Source: an uncultured delta proteobacterium
GTDB lineage: Bacteria > Desulfobacterota > BSN033 > UBA1163
Reading direction: 5' to 3'
Length of the DNA stretch: 64,000 nt
Assembly (NCBI GenBank): GCA_963827685.1
Contig: CAWHBU010000002.1
Coordinates: forward strand, 384,001-448,000
The notes beneath the pieces were generated by a model. That model did not search any database, had not been told where the DNA came from, and saw nothing but the letters and a program-made list of their open reading frames with translations. The number at the start of each line of letters is the position of its first letter. The stretch's first letter is position 1. Made by a program: the position numbers and the translations under genes. Below, piece after piece: positions 39,325 through 64,000 of this stretch.

Positions 39325-39364
39325 GGAGTTTCGGGACCGCGGCGGCGCTAAAAAAAAACAATAG
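38996..39364 (+). CDS. HTH protein (OrfA of an IS3-like pair)
   Basis: AKEGAQRLGVSRKTYYEW, GRPP, coiled coil; ends in an A9 run (39350-39358). Confidence 0.75.
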   Translation: MEERKRRHEREKEQKLARERALVILQVRSGALTAKEGAQRLGVSRKTYYEWEEKSLKAMALALENHPAGRPPVPVDEEKETLLERIQELEKKLDVAKQTTKVKEFLGVYEEFRDRGGAKKKQ

Positions 39365-39408
39365 ATCGGCAAGAAGCGATCAGAAAGGTTGTAGAGACGA
39401 TTGAGAGT

Positions 39409-47944: not shown

Positions 47945-47956
47945 TTTCAGCCATAG

Positions 47957-49309
47957 ATGACCGCAACAATAAGCCAGTCGCTCAATATCCTTATCGTGGA
48001 TGACGAGGTCAACATCCGCAAGACTCTGTCCGTCTGCCTTGAGACCGAAGGTCACAAAGTGATTGCTGTCAGCAACTTTCAGGATGCCTTAGCGGAGGCG
48101 TCACGAAGGTCCTTTGAACTTGCATTCGTAGATCTAAGGCTTGGTACGGAAGATGGACTGGATTTAATCCCTCCTTTGCTGGCAGCAGCGCCATGGCTTA
48201 AGGTTATTGTCATTACAGCCTACGCTTCTATCGATACGGCCGTCGAGGCCATGCGACGCGGGGCAACCGACTACATTCCGAAACCATTCACACCCGCCCA
48301 GGTAAAACTGGCGGTTAACAAGGTATTCGAAATGCGTACGCTGGAGCAAAGAGTTGCAGTTCTACAAGAAGACCTTAAACGGTTAAATCCTGAAGTGGAC
48401 TTTTCAAGTTCCAGTGCTATCATGCAGCGGGCTGTGAATCTGCTGCACCAGGTGGCCTCCACTGAAGCCACCATTCTTTTGCGCGGGGAAAGTGGAACAG
48501 GTAAGACCGTGCTCGCCCGCGCCATCCATTCCTGGAGCAAACGGGCCGACAAGCCTTTTGCCGTCATTTCCTGTCCCTCTCTTTTGCCAGAACTTCTGGA
48601 GAGCGAACTCTTTGGTCATGTAAAAGGGGCTTTTACAGGCGCTGTGCGGGATAATCCTGGCCGCATTGCAACCTGTGAAGGTGGGACCCTTTTACTGGAT
48701 GAGATCGGCGATTTACCGGCAAACCTGCAGCCAAAACTTCTGCGCTTTCTTCAGGACAGGGAGTATGAGAGGGTGGGAGATTATACAACACGAAAAGCGG
48801 ACGTCCGCATCATTGCCAGCACCAACAGGGATCTCGATAGAGCAGTCAAAGAAGGCCAGTTTCGCGAAGACCTCTTTTATCGACTCAATGTGATCCAGAT
48901 CGATATTCCCCCTTTGCGTGAACGGCCGGAGGATGTGACGATCCTTGCTGAGAGGTTATTAGCCTTTTTTGGTCGGGCCGGGCATCATCTCTTTCTCGGT
49001 TTTACCCCGGAGGCGCTTCAAGCCCTCAAACAATACCACTGGCCTGGAAACCTCAGAGAGCTGCGAAACGTTGTTGAACGGGCAGCCATTCTCTGTCAAA
49101 CAGACAAGGTTGGAATCGAATGTCTTCCTGAAAATCTGTTGCCAAGTGATTCAGGCGCGAGACCTGGCGATAGGGTCTCTTTGGAGAAAATCGAGGAGGA
49201 ACATATCCGGCGGGTGTTGGCTACGACAAAATCGCTTCAAGAGGCCGCAGATATACTCGGCATAGATCAGGCGACCCTATGGCGCCGCAGGAAGAAGTAT
49301 GGAATTTGA
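47957..49309 (+). CDS. Sigma54-dependent response regulator (NtrC/AlgB-like)
   Basis: Receiver domain, GESGTGKT, ELFGHVKGAFTGA, LLDEIG, WPGNLREL, Fis-type HTH. Confidence 0.93.
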   Translation: MTATISQSLNILIVDDEVNIRKTLSVCLETEGHKVIAVSNFQDALAEASRRSFELAFVDLRLGTEDGLDLIPPLLAAAPWLKVIVITAYASIDTAVEAMRRGATDYIPKPFTPAQVKLAVNKVFEMRTLEQRVAVLQEDLKRLNPEVDFSSSSAIMQRAVNLLHQVASTEATILLRGESGTGKTVLARAIHSWSKRADKPFAVISCPSLLPELLESELFGHVKGAFTGAVRDNPGRIATCEGGTLLLDEIGDLPANLQPKLLRFLQDREYERVGDYTTRKADVRIIASTNRDLDRAVKEGQFREDLFYRLNVIQIDIPPLRERPEDVTILAERLLAFFGRAGHHLFLGFTPEALQALKQYHWPGNLRELRNVVERAAILCQTDKVGIECLPENLLPSDSGARPGDRVSLEKIEEEHIRRVLATTKSLQEAADILGIDQATLWRRRKKYGI

Positions 49310-49351
49310 TATTAGTGGAAGGAAGGATTCGGTGCTTTGTTCCACCTACAA
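49227..49351 (+). repeat. Gene 3'-end segment duplicated at 59872-59986 and 61982-62106
   Basis: CAAAATCGCTTCAAGAGGCCGCAGATATACTCGGCATAGATCAGGCGACCCTATGGCGCCGCAGG...GGAAGGAAGGATTCGGTGCTTTG. Confidence 0.95.
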
Positions 49352-49635
49352 CTAAAGAATTCTCAAAATCATTTGAACTATTGATTTCGATTTGAAAGTG
49401 AGCATAACGCTCAAGGCCAAGAGAAGTGTGAAGGCTCCTTATTGCTCGCATCAATAACATATAAAATTGGTTGCACAAAACTAACTTGAGGCATCGGTAA
49501 CCCTCAATCATTATCTTTTTCAAGGTCTGGCTTCTCTTTAAACCAGTAATCATCAGGTAAATCCTTAACCAATGTTTTAAAGCCAGTGAACGGCTTCATA
49601 TCTTCTTGGAATTTGTTCTGAGGCTTGGGCCCCGA

Positions 49636-50061
49636 TTAATGCCCTGACTGGGTGCCAGCTAGGATTTGGGTAAATACTACATTAGTCTTTCTTGTCTCTC
49701 CGTCTCGAATATACTCAGCATAACATTCCACCCTATGTGAGCCAATGCTAACACCGGGAAGGTACACTTGGAAAGCTCTCTTCGTTCCTAAGGTTAAATA
49801 CGATGCATCCGATACATCAAAACAGTATGGCTCCTGCCCTGATTCATAGATACAGGCTCTTTTAATCTCTGGCTTACCAGCTGCCTCAAAAAAAATATTA
49901 ACCGCAAAGGATGCATTCGCTTGGATACCACTTCCCAGAGCATCTATACTTAATAATCTTACCTCGCCTGAAGCGAGAGGCTCCCTTGGGACCGTAGCAC
50001 AAGAAGAAGCTATCAACAAAACCACTCCACTCAACAAAACAGTTATTAATATAGACCTCAT
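49636..50061 (-). CDS. Hypothetical lipoprotein
   Basis: Lipobox-like IASSC after a hydrophobic stretch; RBS GGAGG. Confidence 0.7.
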   Translation of the reverse strand: MRSILITVLLSGVVLLIASSCATVPREPLASGEVRLLSIDALGSGIQANASFAVNIFFEAAGKPEIKRACIYESGQEPYCFDVSDASYLTLGTKRAFQVYLPGVSIGSHRVECYAEYIRDGETRKTNVVFTQILAGTQSGH

Positions 50062-50150
50062 AGAAATAACCTCCTTCCTATTTTTTTATATCGTGTTATA
50101 CAGCAAATGTGACCAATTTCTTTGCCTTGTAAATCTGACAGAAATCTTAC

Positions 50151-51259
50151 TAATACAAACGCATTAAGTAATGTTACATAGCCTACGAATCTTTTGACAA
50201 GACCATGAGCGAGTTGTTTTACAAACGACAGACCAAAGATTATCAAGGTTTTCAAACCAACGGTTGGTGGTGGATTCATAGCGAACACTGCGCCAAATCC
50301 GTTCTTGCACGTTTAATCCCGGTTGATACGGGGGTAAATATTCGATATGGAGCCTCGGATGTTTTTTAAGAAATTGTTCGATGGGATCGCCTCTGTGCCA
50401 GCGGGCCCTGTCGACATAAAGCCAAATGGTATATTCTTTAAACCTTCCATAGAGGTGGCGCAAAAGTTTGAGAAACCCTTCTCTATCCCCCCGTTTTGTC
50501 TGAATCATGCCATAGCGTCCAAGCAAAGGATTGACCCACCCAGAGATATTCAAGCGGATACGATGCTGGCTGGTGGTGGGAATCTTAAGACGCTTTCCTT
50601 TCTTCGCCCAGCCCCGGCTAAGCCTGGGGTGCATCGTAAAGCCTGTCTCATCCTGGAATACAATTGTCTCTTTTGGCCCCAGGGACTCAAGTTTTTTTTA
50701 AAGCCCGCTGGAACTTTCGGGCTTCTTGGCTTTGTGCTTGAAGATAAGAATAACTCGCTCTCTTTAACCGATAACCCAAATGATGCATCCAGCGTTGGGC
50801 TTGCCGCACCTTCAGGTTTATCCCGAAAGACCGCTTCAGATGAATCGCAACCGTTGGCCCATCCCATTGAGTCCGGTTTAAACCAAATTCCCGCGGAGAC
50901 TTCTCTAAGTGTCCCTCCAGCACCCTTTGAATCTTTGTCTCTAACCGTGAAGGCCTTCCCGATCTTGGCTTGGATTTTAAGAACTCTAAGCCGTCTTTGT
51001 TCACCCCGTGAATCCATCGGCTTAAACTCATCCGGGTCAACCCTAACACCTCGGTTATCCATCCCGGACGTTGCCCTTCAAGCACCAGGAGTAAGGCGGC
51101 TATCTTTATGCCTATCCAAGCCCCTGATATTTGTTCGGCTAATGCTAATAAACGCTCTTTATTGGCCTCTTTATGCTCTAAGATTAATGTGGGATTTTTC
51201 ATGCCCACATATTAACATAAATAAACTGCTATGTCACTTTATTTAGGACGTTCGTATTA
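50151..51259 (-). mobile_element. IS630-family element, two-ORF transposase joined by a -1 frameshift
   Basis: TIRs TAATACAAACGCATTAAGTAATGTTACATAG / rc TAATACGAACGTCCTAAATAAAGTGACATAG with TA ends; HTH ORF 50687-51208; A8C slip at 50691-50699; YVDRARWH, LPPYQPGLNVQERIW. Confidence 0.9.
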
Positions 51260-51410
51260 AATAAAGATTAAACGGGCATTAAATTTAGATTAAGATTTCT
51301 TAACTTCGGCAAATAGAATTTTAAGCTTTTGGGAGAGGGCAATTCACAAAGCGAAGGTTGAACCCTTACTCGGTTCCCTTCACACCTCAATTCCTTCGTA
51401 CCGTAGAGAA

Positions 51411-52534
51411 CTAGTATCTAATTATATAAATAAGCGTACTTATTTTTAGGGTGAACTGATTTGACATAACGCTTGGTCCATTCAAACGGGGCTGCCTTTT
51501 CGTTATGGACGGAAATAAACTCATCGATCGCCTGGCGCAACTGTCGGACGCTTGTAAAGGAGGCGCCCCTCAAGGCATAGCGGCTCAGAAGACTGAACCA
51601 GATTTCGATCTGGTTCAGCCAGGAAGCATGTGTGGGCGTAAAATGAAAATGAACCTTCGGATGGCGTTTAATCCAATGATCCCTCTTCGGTCGATGAGTC
51701 TTCAAATTGTCCATAATCACATGGATTTCCTCGTCCGGATGTTCGGCAACGATCTCGTTCATAAAATCCAGAAACTCCCGGCGACGACGGCGGCCGTAAT
51801 GGCCCGCCTTCACTTGTCCCGTGGCCACATTCAAGGCTGCAAAGAGGGTACTCGTTCCATGCCGTCTATACTCATGGTTGGCTCCCGTCAGCGCCTTGCC
51901 ATTGGGCAGTTTAAGCCACCCCTGAGCCCGTTCCAACGCCTGAATGGCTGGCTTCTCATCCATGCATACCACCATGGCGTTCTCAGGAGGATCCAGGTAA
52001 AGCCCAACAATATCAGCGGACTTCCGTGCAAATTCAGGGTCCGTCGAAATACACCAACTGCGCCGTCTCTGAAGGCTAATCCCATACTTGCGCAACACCG
52101 CCCACACTTCATAATCCGGGATGCTCGTCCTCTCCCCCAGAAGCCTTCCGTTCCACTGGGCATATCCCTTCGGAGGAGCTTCATCGATCTTGCGCAGAAT
52201 TGTGTGTTCGGTCTCTGCGGTGTACTTACGTGGCTGCCCGGGGCGCGGTTCATCAAGCAAACCTGCCAACCCTTCTCTGACGAAACGGCTACGCCATTTG
52301 CAAACGCGTGCAACACGAGTCCTCAGCCTTTTGGCAATCTCCGTGTTACTCTGCCCTTCAGCACCCCAGAGAATAATTTGCGCCCTCTCCGCCATACGCT
52401 TGGGAGTGGTATGGGTTCGAACCAATCGATCCAACTCAGCCCGTTGCTCGGGCTCCAACGTGATTTCTTTTGCTTTCCTGCTCATAATACAGGAAAGTTA
52501 GCATATTACGCTTATTATGTCAAGTAGATACTAG
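51411..52534 (-). mobile_element. IS630-family element, single ORF
   Basis: CTAGTATCTA...TAGATACTAG ends with an inner ATAAGCGTA/TACGCTTAT match. Confidence 0.9.
51418..52485 (-). CDS. IS630-family transposase
   Basis: CMDEKP, HEYRRHGT, IMDNLKTH, TPTHASWLNQIEIWF. Confidence 0.95.
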   Translation of the reverse strand: MSRKAKEITLEPEQRAELDRLVRTHTTPKRMAERAQIILWGAEGQSNTEIAKRLRTRVARVCKWRSRFVREGLAGLLDEPRPGQPRKYTAETEHTILRKIDEAPPKGYAQWNGRLLGERTSIPDYEVWAVLRKYGISLQRRRSWCISTDPEFARKSADIVGLYLDPPENAMVVCMDEKPAIQALERAQGWLKLPNGKALTGANHEYRRHGTSTLFAALNVATGQVKAGHYGRRRRREFLDFMNEIVAEHPDEEIHVIMDNLKTHRPKRDHWIKRHPKVHFHFTPTHASWLNQIEIWFSLLSRYALRGASFTSVRQLRQAIDEFISVHNEKAAPFEWTKRYVKSVHPKNKYAYLYN

Positions 52535-52604
52535 TCCATCTTATCGATTACTGTTTGAAATGTCGTACTGAGGGAAGATTTACAAGAATCACGCTTTCAA
52601 GAAG

Positions 52605-52766
52605 AAGCTTTTGGGCGGGAGTTTGGTCGGAGGCAATCCCCAGTGGAGGTCTGAGGAGGTTGAAAGACCTTAGGAATGCAGGTAAATATTTTAGATTATT
52701 CTGTGAAGTCCGGAGACCTTTGTAACCCGTACTTATTTAACAAACTTAACTACGACCCCTGGGCAT
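52605..52766 (+). repeat. Conserved ~160-bp non-coding unit, copy A (no gene-end duplicate attached)
   Basis: AAGCTTTTGGGCGGGAGTTTGGTCGGAGGCAATCCCC...AACCCGTACTTATTTAACAAACTTAACTACGACCCCTGGGCAT. Confidence 0.95.
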
Positions 52767-52866
52767 GCGATTACCAGTTGAAAGAGAGCATGATGCCCCA
52801 ACCTACCCGCCGTTTCTTCTATGGTTTCTTAACCAAGACAAGCAGATATCCCGATTATCGCCTTGC

Positions 52867-54150
52867 CTAAGGTTCCGTCTCATCGGGATCCTCTATAACG
52901 TCGATCCCGACACCCGGTTTAAAAGGGTAAGAAATTACCCGCGAGGTCGCAAAGACATTTTGCTTGCTGGCCTCCAATAGCTTCTTTGCTTCTGCGACTA
53001 CGGCATCAGTTTGAATTAGCCTCGGCCGGACAGCAACGGCAATCTCAGCATGAAGCAAAATCGGGTTTGCGAAGCTGTCCGCATAGACCTTTGCACCAAA
53101 CTCGGCTTTACAGGCACCCGATGCCAGAAGGTACGTAAACGGCTGTACGAGGCGAACTCGATGTGGCTGAAGTGCTTCCCACTCAAAGCTATATTTCCAT
53201 TCGTCACCTTCTTTTGTCAAGCCTTTACCGCTTAACTTTTCAAGCTTACGTTCTATTTCACTGGGTTCACCCATCTGCAGATTTTCAGCGAGGGAATACC
53301 AAGTTACGGCATATTGGGACCTTGCCGAACGTAAAGGATTCGTTTGCGATACCTGAAAAGCACCTGCCGATGCCGTTATTGACATTTCCACGTAGAGGTT
53401 GCGTATTCCAGATGAACTGATGTTCTTAATTGCCAAGATGGCTGGAACTAATCCAGCTTCCATGCGCGCGTCTTGAAGGACTCGCTCAAAATACTGCTTG
53501 AGCTCGCGATCAATTTCAATATCGGGGGCCGACAGTTTAAGCACGTCGACACCTGTTGACAATGAGTTACCCGCAAGCTCGCCTGTTTCCAGAGACACAA
53601 ACTGGAGATCGAGAGGCAGCGGTTGACCTGAATTGTCCACCCTTTGCAGATCACGGATCTTCAATTCCAGTTGGTTTGCAAATTTGTCACGAAAATTAAG
53701 TGAAGAACCGAAGACCTCTACAAGTGCATGCGATGATATTCTCTCCTTGAAAGTTTTTAGCTTTTCCATCTGGTCAAGATCGACATGGCTAGGATCAACT
53801 GGGACATGGGAAAAATACAGCATCACTGGCTTGCCGGCTTTTGCCACTCGTTCGATTTCTTCCAATGTGCCGCTGTCAGCCTCACCGGTTGGCGTACCGA
53901 GCCTGGTCCAGAAAATCCCGACGAGAAGGTCACAATCATCAACTATCCTGCGGTTAACCGCCTCTTGTGGTCGCACGTTATATTCAGGGGCAGCATGGGT
54001 TTCCCACCTGAGAGGAAGAACGACAACGCGGCGATTGTCCGAATGAAGGTTATTCCAGTCTTGCATCACACGGACAGCTGCTTCACGCTCTTCAAGAACG
54101 TCAGAAGGAGATGCGATGAGAATTCGGTACACGCGAGCGTCATAGGACAT
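52867..54150 (-). CDS. DUF4062-like (TIR/deoxyribosyltransferase-type fold) domain fused to an unknown C-terminal domain
   Basis: ILIASPSDV.EER, RWE, CDLLVGIFWTRLGTPT..ADSGTLEEI. Confidence 0.75.
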   Translation of the reverse strand: MSYDARVYRILIASPSDVLEEREAAVRVMQDWNNLHSDNRRVVVLPLRWETHAAPEYNVRPQEAVNRRIVDDCDLLVGIFWTRLGTPTGEADSGTLEEIERVAKAGKPVMLYFSHVPVDPSHVDLDQMEKLKTFKERISSHALVEVFGSSLNFRDKFANQLELKIRDLQRVDNSGQPLPLDLQFVSLETGELAGNSLSTGVDVLKLSAPDIEIDRELKQYFERVLQDARMEAGLVPAILAIKNISSSGIRNLYVEMSITASAGAFQVSQTNPLRSARSQYAVTWYSLAENLQMGEPSEIERKLEKLSGKGLTKEGDEWKYSFEWEALQPHRVRLVQPFTYLLASGACKAEFGAKVYADSFANPILLHAEIAVAVRPRLIQTDAVVAEAKKLLEASKQNVFATSRVISYPFKPGVGIDVIEDPDETEP

Positions 54151-54522
54151 TAGGGAATCTCACTCTACACCAGAGGTCCACACCGCTAATCGCGCCTCGA
54201 ATATTTTCTAAACCATTGAGGCTTTTCTGCTCAAAAAGGTCTGAATTAGATAAAATTCATCCAGCAAGAAAAGATCGTTTAGCACTATAAAACACAGAAT
54301 TGAGATAATTGGAACAAATTATCGTCGGAATCGGAGCATACCCCATTGCTACTTTTCGTTTATAATATACACCTTTTTCAAAAAATAGCAAAGCGAAAAC
54401 TTCATGAAGAACTTCTCTTTTCTCCTAAATCTTGCCGGCCTCAATCCCGTTTTAACGCTTCCCTACAAATCTTCAGTCTAAGATGACTCTGAGGATCGAC
54501 AATTACTGGTAGAAACATGCAC

Positions 54523-54556
54523 AAAAAAAGGCAGGACTATTTCTAACCCTGCCTTT
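54523..54556 (-). terminator. Intrinsic terminator
   Basis: AAAGGCAGG...CCTGCCTTT hairpin with a T7 tail on the minus strand. Confidence 0.65.
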
Positions 54557-54627
54557 GCTCTTTGACCACTGAATATTGACTTACTTCCCTCGATGATGGC
54601 GTGCTTAGTCCAAGCCTCCATCCCCTC

Positions 54628-55212
54628 CTACCGGTATTTTCTGCGTTGGATTTCACTCCGAATCCTACTCCTCTCCCGCCCATCAGAGACATAGAGGGAG
54701 GGTGGGACATTCCATCCCAATCCCCGATGCTGTCTGATGATTGAATGAAAATTTTTTAGGCCAACCTTCCGCCCTATCGTGTGGATCCGGAGTCGTTTCA
54801 TAAAATAGATCGCATAAGCCTTCTCTGCTCTCTTTGAGCGGAGTCTTCCAAATTTCTGACTGACCAATCCCCGGTTTCTCAGCGTTCGGAAATGGTAAAA
54901 GTATTTTGCTCTTGATCCCCCCGTTTCCTTTTTGATCGTGTGGGAAGAAATAAATTCGCTGTGGGGTTTCTTGCTGATCTGGATCAGCTTCTGACAAAAA
55001 CGACATCCCTCCGTTTGATGCCCTCTGGGTTTCAATGGTCTCTTGATCCCCTGCCTTTTAGAAAAGGCATAAACCGCCTGCCTCGACACTCCATACCTTT
55101 TCCCCAGTTTCTCGAAGGGAAGAGTAGTCCTTTTCAAGTCCCTTAGCAAATCGTCTTCCTTACCCCGAAGTATTCCCCATCTTCTCATTATCATCTTAGG
55201 AACTTTCAGCAA
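54628..55212 (-). CDS. Very basic hypothetical protein with an HTH-like segment (start uncertain)
   Basis: FEKLGKRYGVSRQAVYAF, CRFC; K/R-rich; followed by a terminator. Confidence 0.6.
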   Translation of the reverse strand: MLKVPKMIMRRWGILRGKEDDLLRDLKRTTLPFEKLGKRYGVSRQAVYAFSKRQGIKRPLKPRGHQTEGCRFCQKLIQISKKPHSEFISSHTIKKETGGSRAKYFYHFRTLRNRGLVSQKFGRLRSKRAEKAYAIYFMKRLRIHTIGRKVGLKNFHSIIRQHRGLGWNVPPSLYVSDGRERSRIRSEIQRRKYR

Positions 55213-55410
55213 AATTTTAATTCTTCCATTCCAATCTATTCAATCAGAAACGAGGTGTCAATGAGAATTGGGAGGAGGGTTTAGTCGTCCTTGAATTTTT
55301 GCTAAGCACGGAGTATCTATGAAAAAGAGAGTGCGGGGATGAACTTCGGCCTGCAAATTGAAGACCACTGTTATAAATTGTGATAAAATTAGCTCAAAAG
55401 GACTGGAAAG

Positions 55411-55590
55411 ATGAAGGTATGGGAATACCTTTTAGATTTTTCGGCAAGGATACTTGCTCCGAATTTTCTAAAAATTGGCCTCATCGTTGTTGTTATATGG
55501 CTTCTAATTTCAGGTCTTAGAAAGGGGTTAAGAAAGGCGAGTCGGAATAACGATTCTGAGGAAAATAACGAAGATAACAATAGGGACTAA
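55411..55590 (+). CDS. 59-aa single-TM protein (below the ORF-track cut-off)
   Basis: MKVWEYLLDFSARILAPNFLKIGLIVVVIWLLISGLRKGLRKASRNNDSEENNEDNNRD; purine-rich leader. Confidence 0.5.
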   Translation: MKVWEYLLDFSARILAPNFLKIGLIVVVIWLLISGLRKGLRKASRNNDSEENNEDNNRD

Positions 55591-55685
55591 TTTAGATTTT
55601 TGAATCCTCTTTTAAGAAGTCACTGGGGAGCATCTTCTCAATAGGATTGTGGGTTGGTAGTTCAAATCCCTCCGTGGGCTGTGAA

Positions 55686-55839
55686 TTATCCCGAAAGAAT
55701 ATTCAAAAACTTTTTAAACTTAATCATATCCTCTGGAGAGATATCAATAAATTTTACTCCACACCGATAATCTCCCCAGCTTTCACCCAAATGAATCTCT
55801 GTCCAACCTACCTCGGCCAGCACTTCAACGAAATTCGAC
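55686..55839 (-). pseudogene. C-terminal remnant of a PilZ-domain protein
   Basis: Manual translation VEVLAEVGWTEIHLGESWGDYRCGVKFIDISPEDMIKFKKFL*; no 5' part. Confidence 0.55.
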
Positions 55840-55848
55840 CATATCCTC

Positions 55849-56280
55849 TCAGGGTGGCCAAATGAGAGAAGCGCTGAGACAGTCGCCTTGCTCGTGAAAA
55901 ACTCTTTCCCCCAGAGTCAAGGTTATTCCGACCTCAGAGCAGCATTCGATCGTCCGGGTCCGCTCTTTTGCCAACTTTTCGTTCCAGGAGTAAACACCCG
56001 CTGTATAATATTCTTCAGTCCCGCGGTCGGTACGCACCGAAAATCGGGAGAAGCGCCAAGGTACTCCAAAACGGATTGAAACCGGCCGGTGGGTGACGGA
56101 GTGAATGAATTCAATCCGGCCCTCCTGCCAGGCCCAGAACCAGAATGTATTGGAGCTGCGATTTCCGGCGATTCGGACCGGCCGGACGAATCCCGCCACG
56201 AAAAGGACTGGAATCAGGATAACCGCAAGGGACAAAGTTCTTGTGGAAACCCATTTGCCTTCTGGGGCAAGGTCAATCAC
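55849..56280 (-). CDS. DUF1850-like TRAP-associated protein
   Basis: IEFIHSV motif; coupled to the TAXI gene. Confidence 0.6.
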   Translation of the reverse strand: MIDLAPEGKWVSTRTLSLAVILIPVLFVAGFVRPVRIAGNRSSNTFWFWAWQEGRIEFIHSVTHRPVSIRFGVPWRFSRFSVRTDRGTEEYYTAGVYSWNEKLAKERTRTIECCSEVGITLTLGERVFHEQGDCLSASLIWPP

Positions 56281-57272
56281 TTCAACGTGCCTGTTTCCTT
56301 AAAGTAGCGTAACGAACCCGGGTCGTAAGGAATGATTCCATGAATGAACTTTACCGCATTCGCAGGAGTGGTGTCCTTGGCCGCTTTGGCCGAAGCCTGC
56401 AGTTGCGCCAGATGTTCGAAGACTGCCTTGGTGATGGAGTAAGAATATTTCTCGGGCAAATCCTTTGGTCCCACGAAGAGGTTCCAGAAGGCCAGTGTCG
56501 GGTTGTCCCTGTCGGTCTTGTAGACTTCCTTGGGGATCACGCCCGCTTCCAGCACTCCGGGGAATTTCTGGAGAAGTTTTTTTACCAGGTCTGACGGTAT
56601 GTCCACCAATTCTATCTTACTCCCCTTGCGAGCCAAAGAGGTGGCAAGCTCGGTCACCGAGGCAGTAGGGAGGCCCCCGGACCAGAAATAAGCGTCCAGA
56701 GTTCCTTGTGACATCGCTTCCGACAATTCAGAGGCTCCCAAACGTTCTTGCTTGCCTAAATCGGAAGTCTTCAGCCCGGCCGCATCCAGCACCATAAAGG
56801 CCTCTACCTCGGTGCCCGACCCTGGGGCCCCGGTAGAGACACGCTTTCCCTTCAAGTCGGCTACGGTTTTAATACTTGATCCAGACACGGCCACGAGATG
56901 TAGGTAGTTGGGATACATGGCCCACATGATTCTGATTTCTTTAGCGGGTTTATCTTTGAAGCGATCAAGTTTTCCGGTATATGCAAGGTAAGCCGAATCG
57001 GGAAGGACCGTCCCGAGATAGTAGGTATTCTTGGCCGGGATCGTCCGCCGTTGAATCAGGAGAAGATTGTCCACCGATGCCGCAGTCTGGATGGCGGTTG
57101 CTTCTACTCCAGCGTACTTCGTCAGGATTTCGGCGACTGTCGTCCCGTAGTAATAGTAAACTCCGCCAATGCCACCGGTAGTAACCAAAATCCTGGGTTT
57201 CTCCTCCGCGGCGACGACCAGGGTAGCCAGTCCAAAAATCATTGCCAAAACGATACATGTGATTTTCTTCAT
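56277..57272 (-). CDS. TAXI-family TRAP solute-binding protein
   Basis: TGGIGGVYY, ASVDN, DLKGKRVSTGAPGSGTE; signal peptide. Confidence 0.92.
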   Translation of the reverse strand: MKKITCIVLAMIFGLATLVVAAEEKPRILVTTGGIGGVYYYYGTTVAEILTKYAGVEATAIQTAASVDNLLLIQRRTIPAKNTYYLGTVLPDSAYLAYTGKLDRFKDKPAKEIRIMWAMYPNYLHLVAVSGSSIKTVADLKGKRVSTGAPGSGTEVEAFMVLDAAGLKTSDLGKQERLGASELSEAMSQGTLDAYFWSGGLPTASVTELATSLARKGSKIELVDIPSDLVKKLLQKFPGVLEAGVIPKEVYKTDRDNPTLAFWNLFVGPKDLPEKYSYSITKAVFEHLAQLQASAKAAKDTTPANAVKFIHGIIPYDPGSLRYFKETGTLK

Positions 57273-57360
57273 TCCAACCTCCTCTCACGTTTTGAAAATC
57301 GGGTTAAAGGTGCTTTCCTCAGAAGGTGTCAAGAAATCGCATGCCTTACAGAATGATTCT

Positions 57361-59466
57361 CTATTCGGCAGCGCTGACAGCTTCGGATTTCTTACCCAGG
57401 AAGAACCAGATCGAAACAAGCAAAACTGCCATGTTGACCCAAAGATAAGGTGCAAATAGACCAATAGAAATGATTCCGAGGACCCAACATTCCCATGGGC
57501 GCAACGGCCGCCGTGCATAACCCACCGTGGCTGCTGCCATACAGATCGCGCCCGCCGACACGATTGCCAGGCGAAGGATGAAGCCGGTGATCGCGTCGAA
57601 ACCCGAAGCAGTCCGCCACATTGGCAACAGGAGAAGGGCCGTGCCCCGGTAAGCCAGGATGAAGGAAAAGCCCACGAGATACTTGGGCAAGGCCACAATG
57701 GCCGCATGCCAACCTGTCTTTAACGGGTTCGTTAAAAAAACCGAAGCCGAGGCATACGCGGAGAGGGCCACGGGCGGGGTCACATCGGCCAGAATCGAAT
57801 AATACATCAGGAACATATGTGTGGACAGCAGGGCCGCTTCGGGAGGGATGCCGTTAGCGATGGCTATTTGCACGATGCCCGGGGCCGTCAGGGACGAAGC
57901 CACCACGTATGTCGCCGTTGGCGGAATCCCCATTCCCAGGAGCAAACTTAACACCGCCGCTAAAAAGGTGGCAATAAACAGGCTCTGTCCGGAAACCAAT
58001 GCCATGAACTGGGAAAATTTGTTCGGAAGACCGGTCATGACCATTAAGGTCAGGATCAAGTTGGCACAGACCACGGCTGTGCCGATGGGGATCAAGGTTG
58101 AGAAACCATCAGCCAGCCCTTTCAGGAGCACACGCGGGCTCACTGGACGAAGCGTGGGGTCCAGGTAGCAAAAAATGACGAAGAGAACCACGGCAGAAGC
58201 TACGGCCATGCTGATCGAGTAGCCCAGATAGATGAAGACCACAATTAAAAGGATGGGGACGAAAATGTAGCAGTACCGGCGAAAATACCGCCCACCATAG
58301 CTTTTTTCATTCTCGATGGGCTTCAGCCCGATCTTCTTAACATAAAAATAGTTGTAAGCCATGATGGCCACGAGATAGAGAAACATCGGTCCCAAGGCCA
58401 TGATGCAAACCCATAAATAAGGGATGGAAAGTATCTCCACCATGACAAAGGCCATGGAGCCCAAAACGGGTGGGGTGATCATGGCTATGGTGCCTGCAGT
58501 GGCGGCTATTCCGGAGGCGACATAGCGATCATATCCTGCCTTTTCGAACATGGGCTTGCTGATAGTCGATACGAACTGGGTGTCCGCCGCGCCGGAACCG
58601 CTGAACATGCCCATGAAAACGGAAGCCAGACACGTGACTATGCCTGGGCTGTCGGCCCGCCCGCGGGCGGCCATTGAGGCGATGTTGGCGATTATCCGGC
58701 CCAAATTCAAGACGCTAATCATACCCCCCAAGATGGTGAAGTAGACGAGATACTTCATGGACACGCCGGTAATGAGTCCGAACAGCCCGGCCTCGGTCTC
58801 GCTGAAAAGTTTTCCCAGCAACAGGTCAAAGCCGAAAGAAGGGTGTGAAAAGACGCCCGAGAGCATATCTCCATACAGGTTGTAAAGAAGGAAAATAAGA
58901 ACCAGAGACGGCAGGATGGCTCCGGTATAACGGTAAACCTGGCCGAGCAAGAGAAGAGTGAGCCCGAAACCCATGACGAGGTCCCAAGGTTCCGGTATCA
59001 TGGCCCGCTCAATGATGTCTTGGAAAAAGATCACCAAATAAAGAAAAGCCACGGTGGCGAGGATAGCCCCGACTTTATTCAGCCACGGGCCCGAGCGGGG
59101 ATAAACGGCCGGCAGGACTGCCACCAGCCAAAAAATGGTGGCCACAACATTGAATTGCAGGTTCAACCCCAGCTGCCAGAAGGCATAGAGCGGAAATGCA
59201 GCCAAAATTGCGAAGACAAAAGAACCGACTCCCGCTCGCCTATCGACTCGGATCGAGGATAGAAGGTATCCTGTCAGGAGAAGGAAAAACACGTGAGTCG
59301 CCCTCTGTACCTGGGTGAGGTCCAGGATGGAAATGGATAGTTTTGAGAGCGGCGTGTAAGGGTGAACCACTAAGTACAAGCTGTAGAGGCTGGCGATGAT
59401 CAGGAGCGGGGTGATGATAAAACGTCTGAGGATGCTATCTTGGGTACTCTGGGGTTCTGCGTGCAT
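57361..59466 (-). CDS. TRAP transporter 4TM/12TM fusion permease
   Basis: GMFSGSG, PPVLGSMAFVM, LGMGIPPTATY, ADVTPPVAL. Confidence 0.92.
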   Translation of the reverse strand: MHAEPQSTQDSILRRFIITPLLIIASLYSLYLVVHPYTPLSKLSISILDLTQVQRATHVFFLLLTGYLLSSIRVDRRAGVGSFVFAILAAFPLYAFWQLGLNLQFNVVATIFWLVAVLPAVYPRSGPWLNKVGAILATVAFLYLVIFFQDIIERAMIPEPWDLVMGFGLTLLLLGQVYRYTGAILPSLVLIFLLYNLYGDMLSGVFSHPSFGFDLLLGKLFSETEAGLFGLITGVSMKYLVYFTILGGMISVLNLGRIIANIASMAARGRADSPGIVTCLASVFMGMFSGSGAADTQFVSTISKPMFEKAGYDRYVASGIAATAGTIAMITPPVLGSMAFVMVEILSIPYLWVCIMALGPMFLYLVAIMAYNYFYVKKIGLKPIENEKSYGGRYFRRYCYIFVPILLIVVFIYLGYSISMAVASAVVLFVIFCYLDPTLRPVSPRVLLKGLADGFSTLIPIGTAVVCANLILTLMVMTGLPNKFSQFMALVSGQSLFIATFLAAVLSLLLGMGIPPTATYVVASSLTAPGIVQIAIANGIPPEAALLSTHMFLMYYSILADVTPPVALSAYASASVFLTNPLKTGWHAAIVALPKYLVGFSFILAYRGTALLLLPMWRTASGFDAITGFILRLAIVSAGAICMAAATVGYARRPLRPWECWVLGIISIGLFAPYLWVNMAVLLVSIWFFLGKKSEAVSAAE

Positions 59467-59705
59467 ATTCAGTCTTATTTCTTTATCCAGGAATTAAATT
59501 CTACGAGACCTGGCTTCTTACCTATTTATCCCCCGCCACCCGCCACAATCTGAGGGTGAACTAAATATACGAAAGAACGAAGTTGAATGTCAAGAAGGAA
59601 GACAACAAGATATGAAGGAAGGTTTTAGGCCAGTATTGCAGATAACGATTACCAAATGAAAACTTGCATCATGGGCGAAATCTGTCAGCCGACGACTACA
59701 GGAAA

Positions 59706-59986
59706 AAGCTTTTGGGCGGGAGTTTGGTCGGAGGCAATCCCCAATGGAGGTCTGAGGAGGTTAAAAGACCTTAGGTTTGCAGTTAAATATTTTAGATTAT
59801 TCTGTGAAGTCCAGAGACCTTTGCAACCCGTACTTATTTAACAAACTTAACTACGCCCCCTGGGCATTAACCGAAATCGCTGCAAGAGGCCGCAGATATA
59901 CTCGGCATAGATCAGGCGACCCTATGGCGCCGCAGGAAGAAGTACGGGATTTGATATGAGTGGAAGGAAGGATTCGGTGCTTTGTT
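59706..59986 (+). repeat. Copy B: ~160-bp unit plus duplicate of the regulator 3' end
   Basis: Matches copy A over ~160 bp, then matches 49227-49341. Confidence 0.95.
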
Positions 59987-60196
59987 ACGGTAGAAATAGC
60001 ATATACTAATTAAATGTATAAAGATCACATCACAACTTTTTGAAACTGCATACCCATAAGAGAAAAACACAAAATATTTTGCAGGAGTCTCTATTGAAAA
60101 CGAATCAACCCTTTTGAAATTTGTCCCGCCGGGGGGAAGTTCAGCCAATTCTTCAGAAGGCTAATTTGTTAGGTGGGTTATCATTTCCGGGTAGAT

Positions 60197-61534
60197 CTAT
60201 GAATTATTCTCCTTTGAGTGGTGACTCAATCGCGCAAGCTTCCCACGAACGGAATCAACGTACTCTTTAAGCCTATAGACCTCTCCAAAAAAAGTAAGGG
60301 GCACGCGAATTCGATGGATCGAAGCTTCGATCTGATCAAGTCTTCCCTGATATTCCAATACCCTTTCTGGCTCCGGATTTTTCATTGCATCCGATTCGAG
60401 ATTCTTTAGTTCTCCAAACCAGCGGTAGAATTTGCGGCGGTTCCGCCAGGAGTATAGCCAGGGTATGCCTCGCATTAGAGGAATCAAGACGATGGCCACC
60501 GGCACCAGGATCAAAATCAGGCGGTCAACTAAAACCGCCACCCCAAAAGGAAGGTAATCGAGCAAAAAAGGGCGGCCTTTCTTATAAAATCTCTCCGCAG
60601 AGGTGGACAACGGAAAATCCAGTTCCTTAGGCGAGGGGAATTCTCCTCTCTTATTCAACCAGCCGGCCCTGCTGTGAATCTCCATAGCCGCGTCCAAAAG
60701 CAGATACTGGAGAGCCGGATGCAGATTCTGGCGTACAATCAAACTTGTTGTCGTGGCGACAAGATGAATATCCTGGGGCGGTACTTTCTCCGACAGATTC
60801 AGTATTCCTTCAGGCAAAATGATATGCGACAAGGCTGGAAAAAGCCGGGTATAGGCCTCGGCATGTTTGAAACTCATCAACTTTATTTTTTCGGCGTACA
60901 GAAGTTCCCGAACGAGCGCATTGTCCTCTGTTCCGATTATCATGACTACATCCAGGGTCCCTTCGAGGAGGGCCTTATTGGCGGCGGCGCTGGGAATATC
61001 CAGCAGCAAGGTGGGAGGTTTGGCTGCACCGCTTGCCTTCAGCAAATCCAAGGAAAACTTCCGCGCCCCGCTGCCCTCTGGCCCGATGGCAATCTTCTTT
61101 CCTATAAGCCTCGAAAGGTCATCCCATGTCTCTTGGCTCCGATAAAAAACCCAGAGGGGCGAGTAGCATATTGCCCCGAGGGAAACGAGATTTTTCGTCT
61201 CGGAGGGGGAGCTTGTCCCATCCTGCACAAAACCAGCATCCACTCGCAAGGACGTATCTCCAAGACGCTTGAGGTTTTCCACCGAACCTGACGAGGGGAG
61301 TAGCTCAAGACGGACCTTTTCCCGCGCCAGGATTTTTTTGTACCGCTCACCAAAATTTGCGTAAGTCCCTCGTTCGAACCCAGTGCTCATGGTCAAAGTA
61401 TCCGGAGGTGTCAAATGATAGGCTATGACGATGGAGATGAGGGCGGTTAACAGTACCGAGGCAATAACCACCAGAAGCCTGCGATTTCGTATACCAGGAA
61501 TGAATTTTCGTCCCATTTTCGGTTCTTTGGGCAT
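60197..61534 (-). CDS. Membrane-anchored TAXI-like solute-binding protein
   Basis: GSVENL, DAGFVQDG, IAIGPEGSG, LHPALQYLL, PFLLDYLPF; N- and C-terminal TM; start uncertain. Confidence 0.8.
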   Translation of the reverse strand: MPKEPKMGRKFIPGIRNRRLLVVIASVLLTALISIVIAYHLTPPDTLTMSTGFERGTYANFGERYKKILAREKVRLELLPSSGSVENLKRLGDTSLRVDAGFVQDGTSSPSETKNLVSLGAICYSPLWVFYRSQETWDDLSRLIGKKIAIGPEGSGARKFSLDLLKASGAAKPPTLLLDIPSAAANKALLEGTLDVVMIIGTEDNALVRELLYAEKIKLMSFKHAEAYTRLFPALSHIILPEGILNLSEKVPPQDIHLVATTTSLIVRQNLHPALQYLLLDAAMEIHSRAGWLNKRGEFPSPKELDFPLSTSAERFYKKGRPFLLDYLPFGVAVLVDRLILILVPVAIVLIPLMRGIPWLYSWRNRRKFYRWFGELKNLESDAMKNPEPERVLEYQGRLDQIEASIHRIRVPLTFFGEVYRLKEYVDSVRGKLARLSHHSKENNS

Positions 61535-61815
61535 GTTACACTCCCATGCAGGCAAAGCTTTTGTCGCCGAGTAGTGATAGTGATAAAAACTTGCTTCGGG
61601 ATAGGTTGAACATACAAAAAACAAAGGAGTAGGTCAAGAAAAATCACCAGAAAAATCACCACAAGATATGGGAGTGTCCTCCTTATCCGTTTGAGACCCA
61701 ACCCACCAATAAAAAAGTGAGGGAGGACTTTGGAGGGTCAAGAAAATAACACTGATGATTACCAATTCACATCGAGCATGCTTGGCCAAAGTGTCGGGTT
61801 GTTGACCTCAGTAAT

Positions 61816-62106
61816 AAGTTTTTGGGCGGGAGTTTGGTCGGAGGCAATCCCCAAGGGAGGTCTATCGAGGTTAAAAGACCTTAGGAATGCAGTTAAATAT
61901 TTTGAATTATTTTGTGAAGTCCAGAGACCTTTGTAACCCGTACTTATTTAACAAACTTAACTACGTCCCTTGGGCATTAACCAAAATCGCTTCAAGAGGC
62001 CGCAGATATACTCGGCATAGATCAGGCGACCCTATGGCGCCGCAGGGAGAAGTACGGGATTTGATATTAGTGGAAGGAAGGATTCGGTGCTTTGGTACGC
62101 CTACAA
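61816..62106 (+). repeat. Copy C: ~160-bp unit plus duplicate of the regulator 3' end
   Basis: Matches copies A and B, then matches 49227-49351. Confidence 0.95.
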
Positions 62107-62157
62107 GTCATTGCTGGGAACCGTATTCAAGGATCGAAGATTACGGGATGAAAGAGA

Positions 62158-62235
62158 GGCTAACGTTCGCGTTCAGTGGCGGGAGCCAGTGGGCGAAGCC
62201 CCCTGGTGACCGTCCACTACAACGCGGGGTTAGCC
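62158..62235 (-). other. Integron attC recombination site (78 bp)
   Basis: Minus strand GGCTAACCCCGCGTTGTAGTGGACGG...CCGCCACTGAACGCGAACGTTAGCC; complementary outer boxes, internal hairpin, 1 bp after a stop codon. Confidence 0.85.
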
Positions 62236-62236
62236 G

Positions 62237-63064
62237 TCATTTCGCAAGTGTGGTTATGAGTCTTCCGCCTGGGCTTAGGACCCGGAAGTCCTCGATGACT
62301 TCATCGTCATTGCTCGCAATGGCACCGGCAAGAGAACCGAGGATGACGTACGCCATGTCATGCACGGAGTGCTCGGCGCGCTCAAGCACGCGGGCAGTAG
62401 GACTTGTCGGTACGTTGCACTGGTACCGTTCGAAGATGCGAAGAGCGGCGAGCAATTGGCATTGAACCCACCTGAACCACGCCCAATCGGGACTGATTTC
62501 CGCAGGCATCGGCGCCTTTGGTGGAAGATCTTCTCGTAAGAAGGATGCATACACAGTGCGGACAACCTCGGGATTCGTGGCGACCCTGGTCCGGGCTGCT
62601 GCAACCGCAGCAGGAAAGTCTCGGAACTCGATTCCGATCAACTCCGGGAAAAACGCATGGACCGACTGGCAACGCCGGAGAAACGACTGCGCGTCTTGGT
62701 AGACCTGGTTGCGCCATGACTGGAGGGTTTCGAGAATCTCACCTCCGGCTATGTAGGTTCCGTTGCGCAGCTTCGGATTGAAGATGTACGAACCCTGGAT
62801 GACGTGCCGTTCAAGCGGACCGCATGGGGATTGGTTCTCGATCTCTGTACGCAGTAAGGTGCCTACGTTCGGGAGAAGCGCGAATGAGCCTGGGCGACTT
62901 GGCAGCTTCGAAAAGCACCGCACTTGGCTCTTCGGGCTCGCGGTCATGAGCTCGTAGAACAGATTCTGGGAAACCATGACTGAGTGGTCTCGACACAGCG
63001 CGGTGATCAACTCTGATGGCGCGCCATCGAGGTAGCTCTTATCGAGTATAAGCGCGGCGGACAC
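62237..63064 (-). CDS. PIN-like domain protein in a gene cassette (GTG start)
   Basis: LILDKSYL, FYEL, HDMAY, ASND acidic-residue pattern; starts 9 bp after GTTAGCC. Confidence 0.55.
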   Translation of the reverse strand: MSAALILDKSYLDGAPSELITALCRDHSVMVSQNLFYELMTASPKSQVRCFSKLPSRPGSFALLPNVGTLLRTEIENQSPCGPLERHVIQGSYIFNPKLRNGTYIAGGEILETLQSWRNQVYQDAQSFLRRCQSVHAFFPELIGIEFRDFPAAVAAARTRVATNPEVVRTVYASFLREDLPPKAPMPAEISPDWAWFRWVQCQLLAALRIFERYQCNVPTSPTARVLERAEHSVHDMAYVILGSLAGAIASNDDEVIEDFRVLSPGGRLITTLAK

Positions 63065-63073
63065 GCTGGTGGC

Positions 63074-63093
63074 GGCTAACTTATTTTTTATGC
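63074..63093 (-). other. attI-like cassette entry junction
   Basis: Minus strand GCATAAAAAATAAGTTAGCC; GTTAGCC is complementary to the GGCTAAC of the attC; composition shifts from AT-rich to GC-rich. Confidence 0.55.
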
Positions 63094-63162
63094 TGCTTCC
63101 ACATTTTCGTAAGTCTTGAACCAATAAAGGCTCTCTTCTACTCAAAACCGCATGCCAGGACA

Positions 63163-63846: not shown

Positions 63847-64000
63847 GTTTTGCGATTCCAAGATAGTCATATGTGCCATCAGCAATGTGGGTCCAGTAAA
63901 ATCTTTTCAAGTACTTCATTCTTTGTTCGATTTGTATAACCCGTTGGAGAGGAGAGATTCTAGGCTCCGGGTATTTGAGCCGTGCAACAATAGCTGCAGC

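Follow-up and report, generated by a model that had tools for sequence, protein, structure and literature searches.

A 64,000-nucleotide stretch of the genome of an uncultured delta proteobacterium (positions 384,001 to 448,000 of contig CAWHBU010000002.1, assembly GCA_963827685.1; hereafter the window) carries a gene for a sigma54-dependent response regulator followed by an island of cargo genes, interspersed with direct repeats that include a short noncoding sequence (the unit) and copies of the 3' end of the regulator gene. Our analysis suggests that the island probably arose, although we hold this view with some reserve, by serial site-specific insertion, just downstream of the regulator gene, of cassettes that lack a recombinase of their own and are served in trans. 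We establish below the anatomy of the island, its empty and filled alleles, the genome-wide families to which its ends belong, and the use of its cores by other site-specific elements. The genome holding the window (G000) is a metagenome-type assembly (94.5% complete, 8% contamination), and the genus comparison set comprised 15 genomes (the compared ones being G002, G004, G006, G008 to G013 and others), among them the sister species G010, which is represented by an independent assembly of two contigs. Coordinates without a prefix refer to the window and those prefixed C1 to C6 to the contigs of G000, the window lying on C2.

Empty and Filled Alleles of the Insertion Site

The regulator gene, whose orthologue was detected in 6 of the 15 genus genomes, is separated from a partner kinase gene by a hypervariable insertion hot spot. 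The site is empty in G008, in which the kinase gene lies about 220 bp past the regulator stop codon, and it is filled in G000 (16.8 kb from the regulator to the next conserved gene) and in G010 (25.4 kb), two alleles that share no cargo apart from the repeated modules. At the G010 locus the regulator gene is followed, again, by three copies of the unit joined to the gene end, and the cargo consists of glycosyltransferase/LptFG, 13-kb coenzyme A (CoA)-ligase/Liv transporter/molybdenum hydroxylase, cupin-Fur and kinase-GmrSD blocks; the cargo of G000 consists of IS630 copies, a DUF4062-like gene, a TAXI-TRAP transporter, a second TAXI-like gene and unknowns. The G002 allele holds 7.6 kb of other DNA without units, and in G009 the gene end is followed by a P' end (one of the two kinds of cassette end described below) and then by different cargo. 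This comparison of empty and filled alleles, proposed as a check in an earlier sequence-only reading of the window, together with the differing cargo, indicates that the island is real, old and in flux. No recombinase was found among the open reading frames (ORFs) of the G000 and G010 islands, and the earlier description of the inserted islets as lacking an integrase holds for the G000 island including the part that extends past the window.

Repeat-induced misjoins in a metagenome-type assembly with the completeness and contamination given above might also create an array, and misassembly had been named as a concern from the outset, but we regard it as a very improbable origin of this one. The repeat copies differ by 5-10% and hence do not represent collapsed or duplicated reads, the independent assemblies of G000 and G010 agree on the island layout, and assembled public metagenome contigs from four runs, possibly contigs of the sample of origin, bridge three joints by matching positions 49238-49767, 61372-61849 and 62038-63107 with 0-2 letter differences. 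Two contigs of run X4 (depth 10 and 14) join position 63147 to 54347-54353, which sets the last cargo block next to the sequence left of a solitary P' end, i.e. another block order in a related population.

The empty site of G008 reads TGA (the stop codon), TGACAGT, AGGAAGG (core c1), 15 nt, CACCGCTTAC and then a TTGAAATGCAC motif, with a CACC..TAC-like motif (core c2) about 15 nt past c1. At the left junction of G000, the gene end runs into AAGGAAGG, behind which stand a 17-nt spacer, CACCTAC and a P' end, and the sequence after CACCTAC is absent from G008. The right junction, at C2:450135 and thus 2.1 kb past the window, consists of a P end (the second kind of cassette end) and TTTCAGGAAG, and from AGGAAG on the sequence is collinear with G008 and synteny with relatives resumes. 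The same pair of junctions was found in G010. Since the stretch of spacer and CACCTAC at the left edge is repeated at unrelated loci, e.g. C2:13588, it belongs to the incoming DNA, and the comparison of both junctions with G008 places the crossover at the AGGAAG core, 9-10 nt past the stop codon. Judged from the aligned alleles, the crossover point is the 7-bp c1 core (CAGGAAG-like), outside the regulator gene, and the crossover within the protein-coding sequence assumed by the sequence-only reading does not stand.

Copies of the Gene End and the Repeated Module

A repeat search and a MAFFT alignment bore out that the window contains three copies of the unit, two of them fused to a copy of the gene end and all in direct orientation. 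The search returned a 296-nt family at positions 52593, 59694 and 61804 and a 125-nt family at 49227, 59872 and 61982, the latter being, as had been recognized, the last 27 codons of the gene with their flank, which measures 42 nt. Identity to the native gene end over 125 bp was 90% for copy B and 95% for copy C, and BLAST comparison of unit and gene end with the whole of G000 gave E values of 1e-48 to 1e-94 for the window copies, which excludes chance. The tandem opening of the unit (TTTGGGCGGGAG / TTTGGTCGGAGG) and its AT-rich middle are both present as described; the terminal CCCCTGGGCA, taken at first for a tRNA-end-like sequence, is instead a small GCCC-n3-GGGC hairpin, and ARAGORN detected no tRNA in 47000-64000.

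These copies had led to the proposal that tyrosine-integrase islets integrate within the regulator gene, each replacing its C-terminal helix-turn-helix. Direct copies of the last 27 codons at the B and C joints would be expected from such events, the differences between copy B and the gene are synonymous only, and islands that target gene 3' ends are known to behave in this way (PMC3146451, PMC5704250). We nevertheless consider this explanation improbable, because the empty allele puts the boundary past the stop codon and because the copies themselves do not behave as coding sequence. Copies B and C carry an in-frame TAA two codons ahead of the first shared codon (CAT TAA CCR AAA TCG), and no in-frame start codon was found by reading after it, so that they should not be translated as fusions. 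When the five gene-end copies of G000 and G010 were measured against the copy consensus, 5 nonsynonymous or nonsense changes (K>E in copy C; D>N, I>L and W>stop in the first G010 copy; L>P in the third) were counted vs 2 synonymous ones, which leaves no signal of purifying selection; the earlier statement that differences are synonymous only is therefore correct for copy B against the G000 gene but not across the five copies. Two of the synonymous differences noted earlier, TAT GGA near the stop, are private to the G000 gene; TAC GGG stands at this place in every copy and in every other species. As far as their sequences tell, the gene-end copies are untranslated and decaying, and with the boundary past the stop codon, a stop upstream in the copies and an internal one in a G010 copy, an exchange of the regulator C terminus at each integration is not required.

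The joint between unit and gene end is base-for-base identical in all five copies of the two species, which indicates that the module arose once, without recurring crossovers, and was copied afterwards. Module copies within one genome are 91-94% identical, as divergent as copies of different species, and this argues against a recent local duplication. Unit A is directly followed by the distal P' half GATTACCAGTTGAAAGAGAGCAT and thus represents a deletion variant of the same module, the deletion having taken the gene end and the proximal P'. A c1 core occurs at every boundary and a gene-end copy at two internal boundaries; since all repeats are direct and each module holds a copy of the left arm of the target, the term tandem accretion used in the earlier reading has been retained, in the meaning it has for integrative and cis-mobilizable elements (IMEs and CIMEs; PMC5704250).

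The P and P' Ends Form a Genome-wide Family

The cargo blocks begin with a P' end, CACCTAC-AAGTC followed after about 35 nt by GA-GATTAC-N4-TGAAAG-N-GCAT, and terminate with a P end, GATTAC-N4-TGAAAT-N-TTGCAT followed after about 28 nt by TTTCAGGAAG. Both ends thus contain, in the same orientation, one copy of the 20-nt motif GATTAC-N4-TGAAA-N2-GCAT, which was observed 71 times in G000 vs about 14 times expected from base composition. Iterated nhmmer searches of G000 returned 52 P' and 48 P ends, and in 9 cases a P and a P' lie head to tail, 10-184 nt apart, as junction elements of about 170 nt. One P-c1-spacer-c2-P' junction spans C3:932234-932373. The ORFs that flank P or P' are antisense to them in 149 of 200 cases.

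Because the motif points the same way in both ends, a DDE-type transposon is ruled out, and the arrangement agrees with arm sites that surround a core; since the flanking 7-mer is identical everywhere, it represents a site and not a target-site duplication. A miniature inverted-repeat transposable element (MITE) or a DDE remnant was rejected on the same ground and because the unit has no terminal inverted repeat save a weak 9-bp stem in some mini copies. A promoter reading of the P motif was discarded as well, given that sigma70, sigma54 and sigma32 promoters did not fit by eye and that such sites are no commoner than in shuffled sequences. The GATTAC...TGAAAG sequence was rejected as a clustered regularly interspaced short palindromic repeat (CRISPR), for a script search of G000 detected no CRISPR-like array, and its only two matches were tandem repeats without a repeat-spacer arrangement. 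The script for CRISPR-like repeats pointed to C3:1158448-1159100, where eight tandem 75-nt repeats lie in or next to a coding region and are followed by a tRNA-like sequence.

The Unit and Its Relatives

The unit belongs to a family with a mini form of 75 nt and a long form of 165-180 nt, the long form being the mini form with a mid-insert of about 95 nt, and its start always lies directly after a c1 core. By BLAST it was found in 11 of the 14 other genus genomes, in 1 of 10 genomes from other genera of the family and in 0 of 16 outside the family. Unit arrays elsewhere in the genus hold blocks of one to three genes between units, with a Bpu10I restriction-modification pair, a PIN toxin pair, a methyltransferase, a cytochrome and binding proteins among their contents. 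Mini-unit arrays of G000 and G010 both adjoin a polysaccharide deacetylase gene and differ in cargo, and the long units of other genomes are not followed by a gene end. In our view the unit does not define the system but is optional, filling the spacer that separates c1 from c2. The sequence-only reading had staked its proposal on the unit not being dispersed over many unrelated loci with no link to a recombinase; it does occur at many unrelated loci, and the link to recombinases exists for the neighboring cores. At the solitary unit C4:283835, an empty allele was sought in five relatives and no collinear match was obtained. A flank to the right of two mini units on C4, tried as a second gene-end copy, was a piece of a true attC/MITE family plus an insertion sequence (IS), and the IS3 elements that crowd the G010 array proved to be bystanders, being six identical copies with ordinary TG..CA ends at unrelated positions.

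The length of the long form is like that of IS110 bridge RNAs, its 5' part resembles a local IS110 leader at about 17-19 of 26 positions, and it lies antisense to the cargo, so that it might be a structured RNA gene (a regulatory leader, an antisense RNA or a guide- or bridge-like RNA), with the gene-end copy as the part that matches the target. Such an RNA is, in our opinion, a distinctly improbable identity for the unit. No Rfam match at E <= 1 was obtained for 47000-64000, unit B did not fold better than its shuffles on either strand (z +0.77 and +0.79), and RNAalifold gave a consensus of only -4.3 kcal/mol for 25 mini units with compensatory change in 0 of 9 pairs. No conservation was seen for the TTG codon with which a small ORF might start. 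An IS110 bridge-RNA gene in particular was dismissed, as no DEDD gene lies beside any window unit, no structure signal was seen and the likeness to the leader is weak and confined to 26 nt.

Recombinases and Other Elements That Use the Cores

A 2172-bp element, present in G000 as three identical copies, carries genes for two Xer-like tyrosine recombinases (387 and 297 amino acids) that score below every Xer equivalog cut-off. The ends of this pair element are 11-13-bp inverted arms that end in CGTATAG around a 7-bp overlap (GTAGGTG in G000), and each of the three copies is inserted at the CACCTAC with which a P' begins. Arms and target are kept in its relatives (57% protein identity) in G010 (4 copies) and G002 (3 copies), and a P' motif accompanies 5 of the 7 of these elements with both ends on the locus. 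The family was also detected, by scanning public genomes, in Syntrophales, Smithella, Desulfobacterales and beyond, with both arms at 51 of 80 loci; over these 80 loci the arms are constant and the overlap, hence the target, varies by subfamily. P'-like sequence lies near 5 of 43 elements by a strict pattern and near about 12 of the 14 CACCTAC-type elements by eye. The overlap of one subfamily (L165-L167) is CTTCCTG, the reverse complement of CAGGAAG, and a CAGGAAG-type pair element in G006 lies exactly at the terminus of a P arm. In addition, an IS110-family element splits CAGGAAG at C3:911.7k, and another abuts a mini unit in G004; the leader that precedes the start codon of the IS110 transposase is the one that weakly resembles the 5' part of the unit. 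By the positions of these elements, which form three independent links to recombinases, enzymes of the genus employ both CAGGAAG and CACCTAC as cores for crossover or insertion. At the C3 locus two IS110-family elements in inverted orientation (C3:911763-913165 and 915625-916989; L221 8763-10165 and 12625-13989) flank a 5'-nucleotidase-like gene, one of them being that inside the P-arm CAGGAAG.

A small tyrosine recombinase of 198-199 amino acids aligns with Xer models over their catalytic half alone (positions 105-280 of 295); G000 has three copies of its gene, G004 has two and G011 has one or two. In 3 of the 6 full genus copies (L232, L233 and L247) the gene is enclosed by two inverted P arms with their c1 ends turned toward it, and the 1.4-kb segment between these arms is 84-89% conserved. 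This protein is the best candidate for an enzyme acting at P-c1, and its locus could be either an invertible switch or a minimal mobile element. A search of the locus with the arm pattern of the pair element gave 0 matches, which indicates that the two are unrelated. The cargo of the window includes a 194-amino acid ORF (54628-55212, minus strand) that is very basic, contains helix-turn-helix-like repeats and belongs to no Pfam or NCBIfam family; it is multicopy in G011 (4) and G006 (3), and on G011:C64 it lies about 1 kb from the small recombinase gene. Our guess is that it might supply the missing DNA-binding half for this recombinase.

How the Cassettes May Move

In the mechanism we propose, the landing site would consist of the stop codon, 7 nt, AGGAAGG (c1), about 15 nt and a CACC..TAC-like c2. 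A cassette would have the structure c1 | short spacer - c2 (CACCTAC) - P' - cargo - P - c1 |, its cargo genes lying almost all antisense and each block having a promoter of its own. The P and P' motifs would act as arm-like sites around the core, and the head-to-tail junction P - c1 - spacer - c2 - P', about 170 nt long, would take the role of the attC site of an integron. At this locus every second segment between c1 cores is the 260-300-nt module composed of the unit and a copy of the last 125 nt of the regulator gene, so that [spacer-c2-P'-cargo-P] alternates with [unit-gene end] along the array. The gene-end copy within the module corresponds to the left arm of the chromosomal site plus c1; a module of this composition re-creates the landing site, and the array could then grow and shuffle. 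The enzyme would be provided in trans, the candidates being the 199-amino acid recombinase and Xer-like pair elements with CAGGAAG or CACCTAC as crossover. Recombination at c1 as the way in which the cassettes travel, and the choice among these enzymes, are our inferences.

Several observations weigh against this mechanism. No circle, excision scar or alternative c1 joint was seen in the assembled contigs of the four public runs, a result that is uninformative on absence; what these contigs did show was limited to unit size variants and the rearranged joint between 63147 and 54347. We encountered no cassette at two places with homology ending at c1, and the 475-amino acid cargo gene recurs in G012, where neither P' nor P accompanies it. 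Of the block 2 cargo, only the 194-amino acid ORF recurs elsewhere, and no adjoining P' was found at the three loci read. Where the units start, c1 has degenerated (CAAGAAG, CAGGAAA, CAGTAAT), and strand exchange at such sequences would now be impeded. By hidden Markov model (HMM), a P arm abuts only 15 of 38 units and a P' lies within 400 nt after 6 of 31, although on a looser reading a TGAAAT-TGCA motif stands about 41 nt upstream in roughly 28 of the 38. The pair element was detected in only 5 of the 15 genus genomes (E <= 1e-60), and in G010, which has arrays, neither a 199-amino acid recombinase of >40% identity nor a CAGGAAG-type pair element was detected. Finally, P and P' could be merely a dispersed intergenic repeat that several site-specific elements target. 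Of the block 2 cargo, only the 194-amino acid ORF recurs elsewhere, and no adjoining P' was found at the three loci read.

The last of these objections leads to an account that we take seriously but deem unlikely, in which P, P' and the unit are dispersed repeats of the repetitive extragenic palindromic (REP), enterobacterial repetitive intergenic consensus (ERIC) or MITE kind, the island arose by homologous recombination of these repeats with one another and with incoming DNA and by local duplication of one module of unit, gene end and P', and pair elements and IS110 use the repeats as landing pads. About 100 copies of P and P' and dozens of units at unrelated loci agree with it, as do modules that are 90-95% alike over 300-400 bp and hence good RecA substrates, three kinds of site-specific elements that target the repeats, promoter-like sites within the cargo blocks, and the lack of an excision product among the assembled public contigs. 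IS1111 elements and group IIC introns likewise target integron attC sites. Under homologous exchange, however, one would not expect the island to be bounded on either side by the 7-bp core, at a site empty in G008, and to have P' and P directly within these borders. The direct rather than inverted ends, the bias in gene orientation and the recombinase gene between inverted P-c1 arms also disagree with dispersed repeats of this kind. Serial site-specific insertion served in trans is the explanation that we prefer.

A wider proposal, which we put forward only tentatively, is that Syntrophales-type bacteria possess a second, integron-independent cassette system. Its bipartite junction of about 170 nt would contain two 7-bp cores and direct arm motifs; it would be moved in trans by a catalytic-only tyrosine recombinase, perhaps with a basic DNA-binding partner, and exploited by lox-like pair elements, and in the present island a "portable landing pad" would alternate with the cassettes.

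Features of the Window and Associated Loci

The coordinates of the island features and of the associated recombinase loci are collected in Table 1. The region upstream of the 475-amino acid cargo gene contains two short modules (61579-61649 and 61736-61810) with 70-87% identity to sequences in 13 of the 14 other genus genomes, the second of which is the P arm and the first of which overlaps the gene start. At 37378-40446 (plus strand), 8 kb upstream of the regulator gene, lie an rve-type transposase gene (648 amino acids, several helix-turn-helix domains) and then a 345-amino acid ORF with a weak rve match, for which no link to the array was seen.

Table 1. Features of the island and loci of the associated recombinases
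Feature	Coordinates	Strand	Evidence or remark
Sigma54-dependent response regulator gene, 450 amino acids	47957..49309	+	Pfam Response_reg, Sigma54_activat, AAA_lid_14, HTH_8; 94% identical G010 orthologue
Native gene end (x0): last 27 codons, stop 49307-49309, and 42 nt	49227..49351	+	Repeat search, alignment, sequence reading
c1-like core AAGGAAG, left island edge, 10 nt past stop	49319..49325	+	Comparison with empty G008 site and right junction C2:450135
c2 core CACCTAC and P' end of first cargo block (terminus GATTTC-N4-TGAAAG-TGAGCAT)	49343..49410	+	Reading
Cargo block 1: two small family-less ORFs, IS630 fragment 50164-50634, complete IS630 51418-52485 (inverted ends 51410-51438 / 52507-52535)	49411..52540	-	
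P end of block 1 (GATTAC-N4-TGAAAT...), terminal c1 variant CAAGAAG 52598-52604	52546..52604	+	nhmmer C2:436542-436613
Unit A, long form; then distal P' half 52769-52791 (GATTACCAGTTGAAAGAGAGCAT); gene-end copy deleted	52605..52766	+	Repeat search, alignment, reading
Cargo: 427-amino acid protein, weak DUF4062 match (E 1.2e-4, below cut-off)	52867..54150	-	
Solitary P' end, remnant joint	54462..54524	+	nhmmer C2:438462-438524; homologue directly after gene end in G010 and G009
Cargo: 194-amino acid basic helix-turn-helix-like ORF, 143-amino acid ORF, TAXI-type binding protein (56277-57272), fused TRAP permease (57361-59466)	54628..59466	-	
P end, terminal c1 variant CAGGAAA 59699-59705	59647..59705	+	nhmmer C2:443643-443714
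Unit B, long form, terminal hairpin GCCCCCTGGGC; TAAC linker 59868-59871	59706..59867	+	Repeat search, alignment
Gene-end copy B; stop copy 59952-59954; c1-like AAGGAAG 59964-59970; degenerate c2 and P' end to ~60054	59872..59996	+	Repeat search, MAFFT alignment, reading
Cargo: 475-amino acid NMT1_3/TAXI-like protein	60197..61624	-	93% identical copy in G012, other context, without these ends
P end, terminal c1 variant CAGTAAT 61809-61815	61757..61815	+	Reading; below reach of P HMM
Unit C, long form; TAAC linker 61978-61981	61816..61977	+	Repeat search, alignment
Gene-end copy C; stop copy 62062-62064; c1-like AAGGAAG 62074-62080	61982..62106	+	Repeat search, MAFFT alignment, reading
c2-like core GCCTAC and P' end of last cargo block (GATTAC 62139-62144)	62098..62165	+	nhmmer C2:446093-446162
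Cargo block 4: ORFs of 316 and 240 amino acids, no family; extends past window to P end	62237..64000	-	P end and exact CAGGAAG at C2:450083-450150
Pair-element copies (loci L133, L136, L128)	C2:700934-703105, C4:734774-736945, C1:55738-57905		
199-amino acid recombinase locus (L232 742-2273; also L233, L247)	C6:132075-133606		

Significance

In our judgment the island and its repeats are real, and the mechanism that built the island is in part deduced. The family of sites appears to be an undescribed, integron-like way of gene collection in anaerobic bacteria; a literature search, with subscription journals and supplements outside its coverage, returned no description of such sites or cassettes, the matches listed for Syntrophales and Smithella being general integron papers and those listed for the arm sequences of the pair element being mouse or cell-biology studies. 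If the cassettes move as proposed, strictly anaerobic syntrophs of sediment and peat would possess a platform for gene capture that does not belong to the integron family, and the arrays hold accessory catabolic and transport genes such as the TRAP/TAXI transporters of G000 and the 13-kb CoA-ligase/Liv/molybdenum hydroxylase block of G010. A concrete set of testable parts would then be available, namely a site about 170 nt in length that contains two 7-bp cores, a chromosomal site in its empty state and three candidate enzymes, one of them a small tyrosine recombinase without a core-binding domain. The pair elements bear on recombinase specificity through arms that stay constant while the overlap changes between subfamilies.

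Comparison with Known Systems

The island is not an integron, since it has neither an IntI nor an attC-type site and the true integrons of the genus have another attC family. The earlier comparison with an integron cargo array holds for the way in which the array would work, which is like that of an integron or of a cluster of attC sites lacking integron integrases (CALIN), but not for its identity, because both defining features are lacking. In G000, a TIGR02249 search gave as best match a 119-residue C-terminal fragment on C3 with 191 bits vs a cut-off of 265. Full intI genes are present in G013, G001, G011 and G006, and that of G011 adjoins an array of a different repeat family (true attC) ending in GGCCAACTTTTTTATGGATGAC. 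No unit was found near integron integrases of the genus in the 5 loci searched, and no pair of inverse cores RYYYAAC ... GTTRRRY was found by reading in the unit or in the P-P' junctions; unit B folds no better than shuffled sequences. The intI fragment of G000 lies at C3:782919-783275 (L056 ~7920-8276) and has a similar counterpart in G010; it is contained in a 6.3-kb segment flanked by two 99% identical, palindromic 85-nt repeats rich in runs of G and C (L056 4787-4871 and 11072-11156; C3:779.8k and 786.1k). Integrase-less arrays of true attC sites occur in G000 at C1:260-265k, C5:58-70k and C4:504-519k.

With integrons and CALINs the present arrays share the single orientation, cassettes of one to a few genes, and a conserved noncoding site with a 7-bp crossover core; like CALINs, they lie far from any recombinase gene, and their sites are themselves hit by specialized insertion elements. 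They differ in that the junction lacks R''/R' inverse cores and a hairpin signal and contains instead two cores and direct arm motifs, and in that the cassettes reach greater sizes (up to 13 kb in G010) and have promoter-like sites. A diversity-generating retroelement was also considered and rejected, because no reverse transcriptase is present among the scanned ORFs and the differences between repeats (T>G, T>C, A>G) are not adenine-specific.

Tandem accretion is known for ICESt1/ICESt3 at fda of streptococci and for the ssrA islands of Dehalococcoides, and according to the respective reports many of its members are devoid of integration genes and thought to move with help in trans (PMC5704250, PMC3146451). 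Serial insertion 3' of one gene and direct gene-end repeats that mark the boundaries are common to those systems and to the island described here. In the accretion systems, crossover takes place within the repeat itself (20 bp of ssrA) and an integrase is encoded by some members (the serine recombinase DsiB in Dehalococcoides), whereas in this island the crossover would lie outside the gene and no recombinase is encoded in the G000 and G010 arrays. A further difference is that the ends of the present cassettes occur at about 50 other genome places each, i.e. about 100 further copies together.

Gene modules without a recombinase, bounded by short Xer-type sites, are represented by the pdif/Xer modules of Acinetobacter plasmids and by integrative mobile elements exploiting Xer (IMEX). 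The pdif modules have 28-bp dif-like sites in alternating orientation and depend on the host XerC/XerD; the sites described here are direct, about 170 nt long and provided with arm motifs, and the recombinases linked to them are element-borne, with scores under every Xer equivalog cut-off. In general plan, rather than by alignment, the joined ends of the pair element resemble Cre/loxP in having inverted arms around an asymmetric 7-bp overlap; unlike Cre/loxP, the pair element is a chromosomal mobile element with two recombinase genes and a specific P'/P target.

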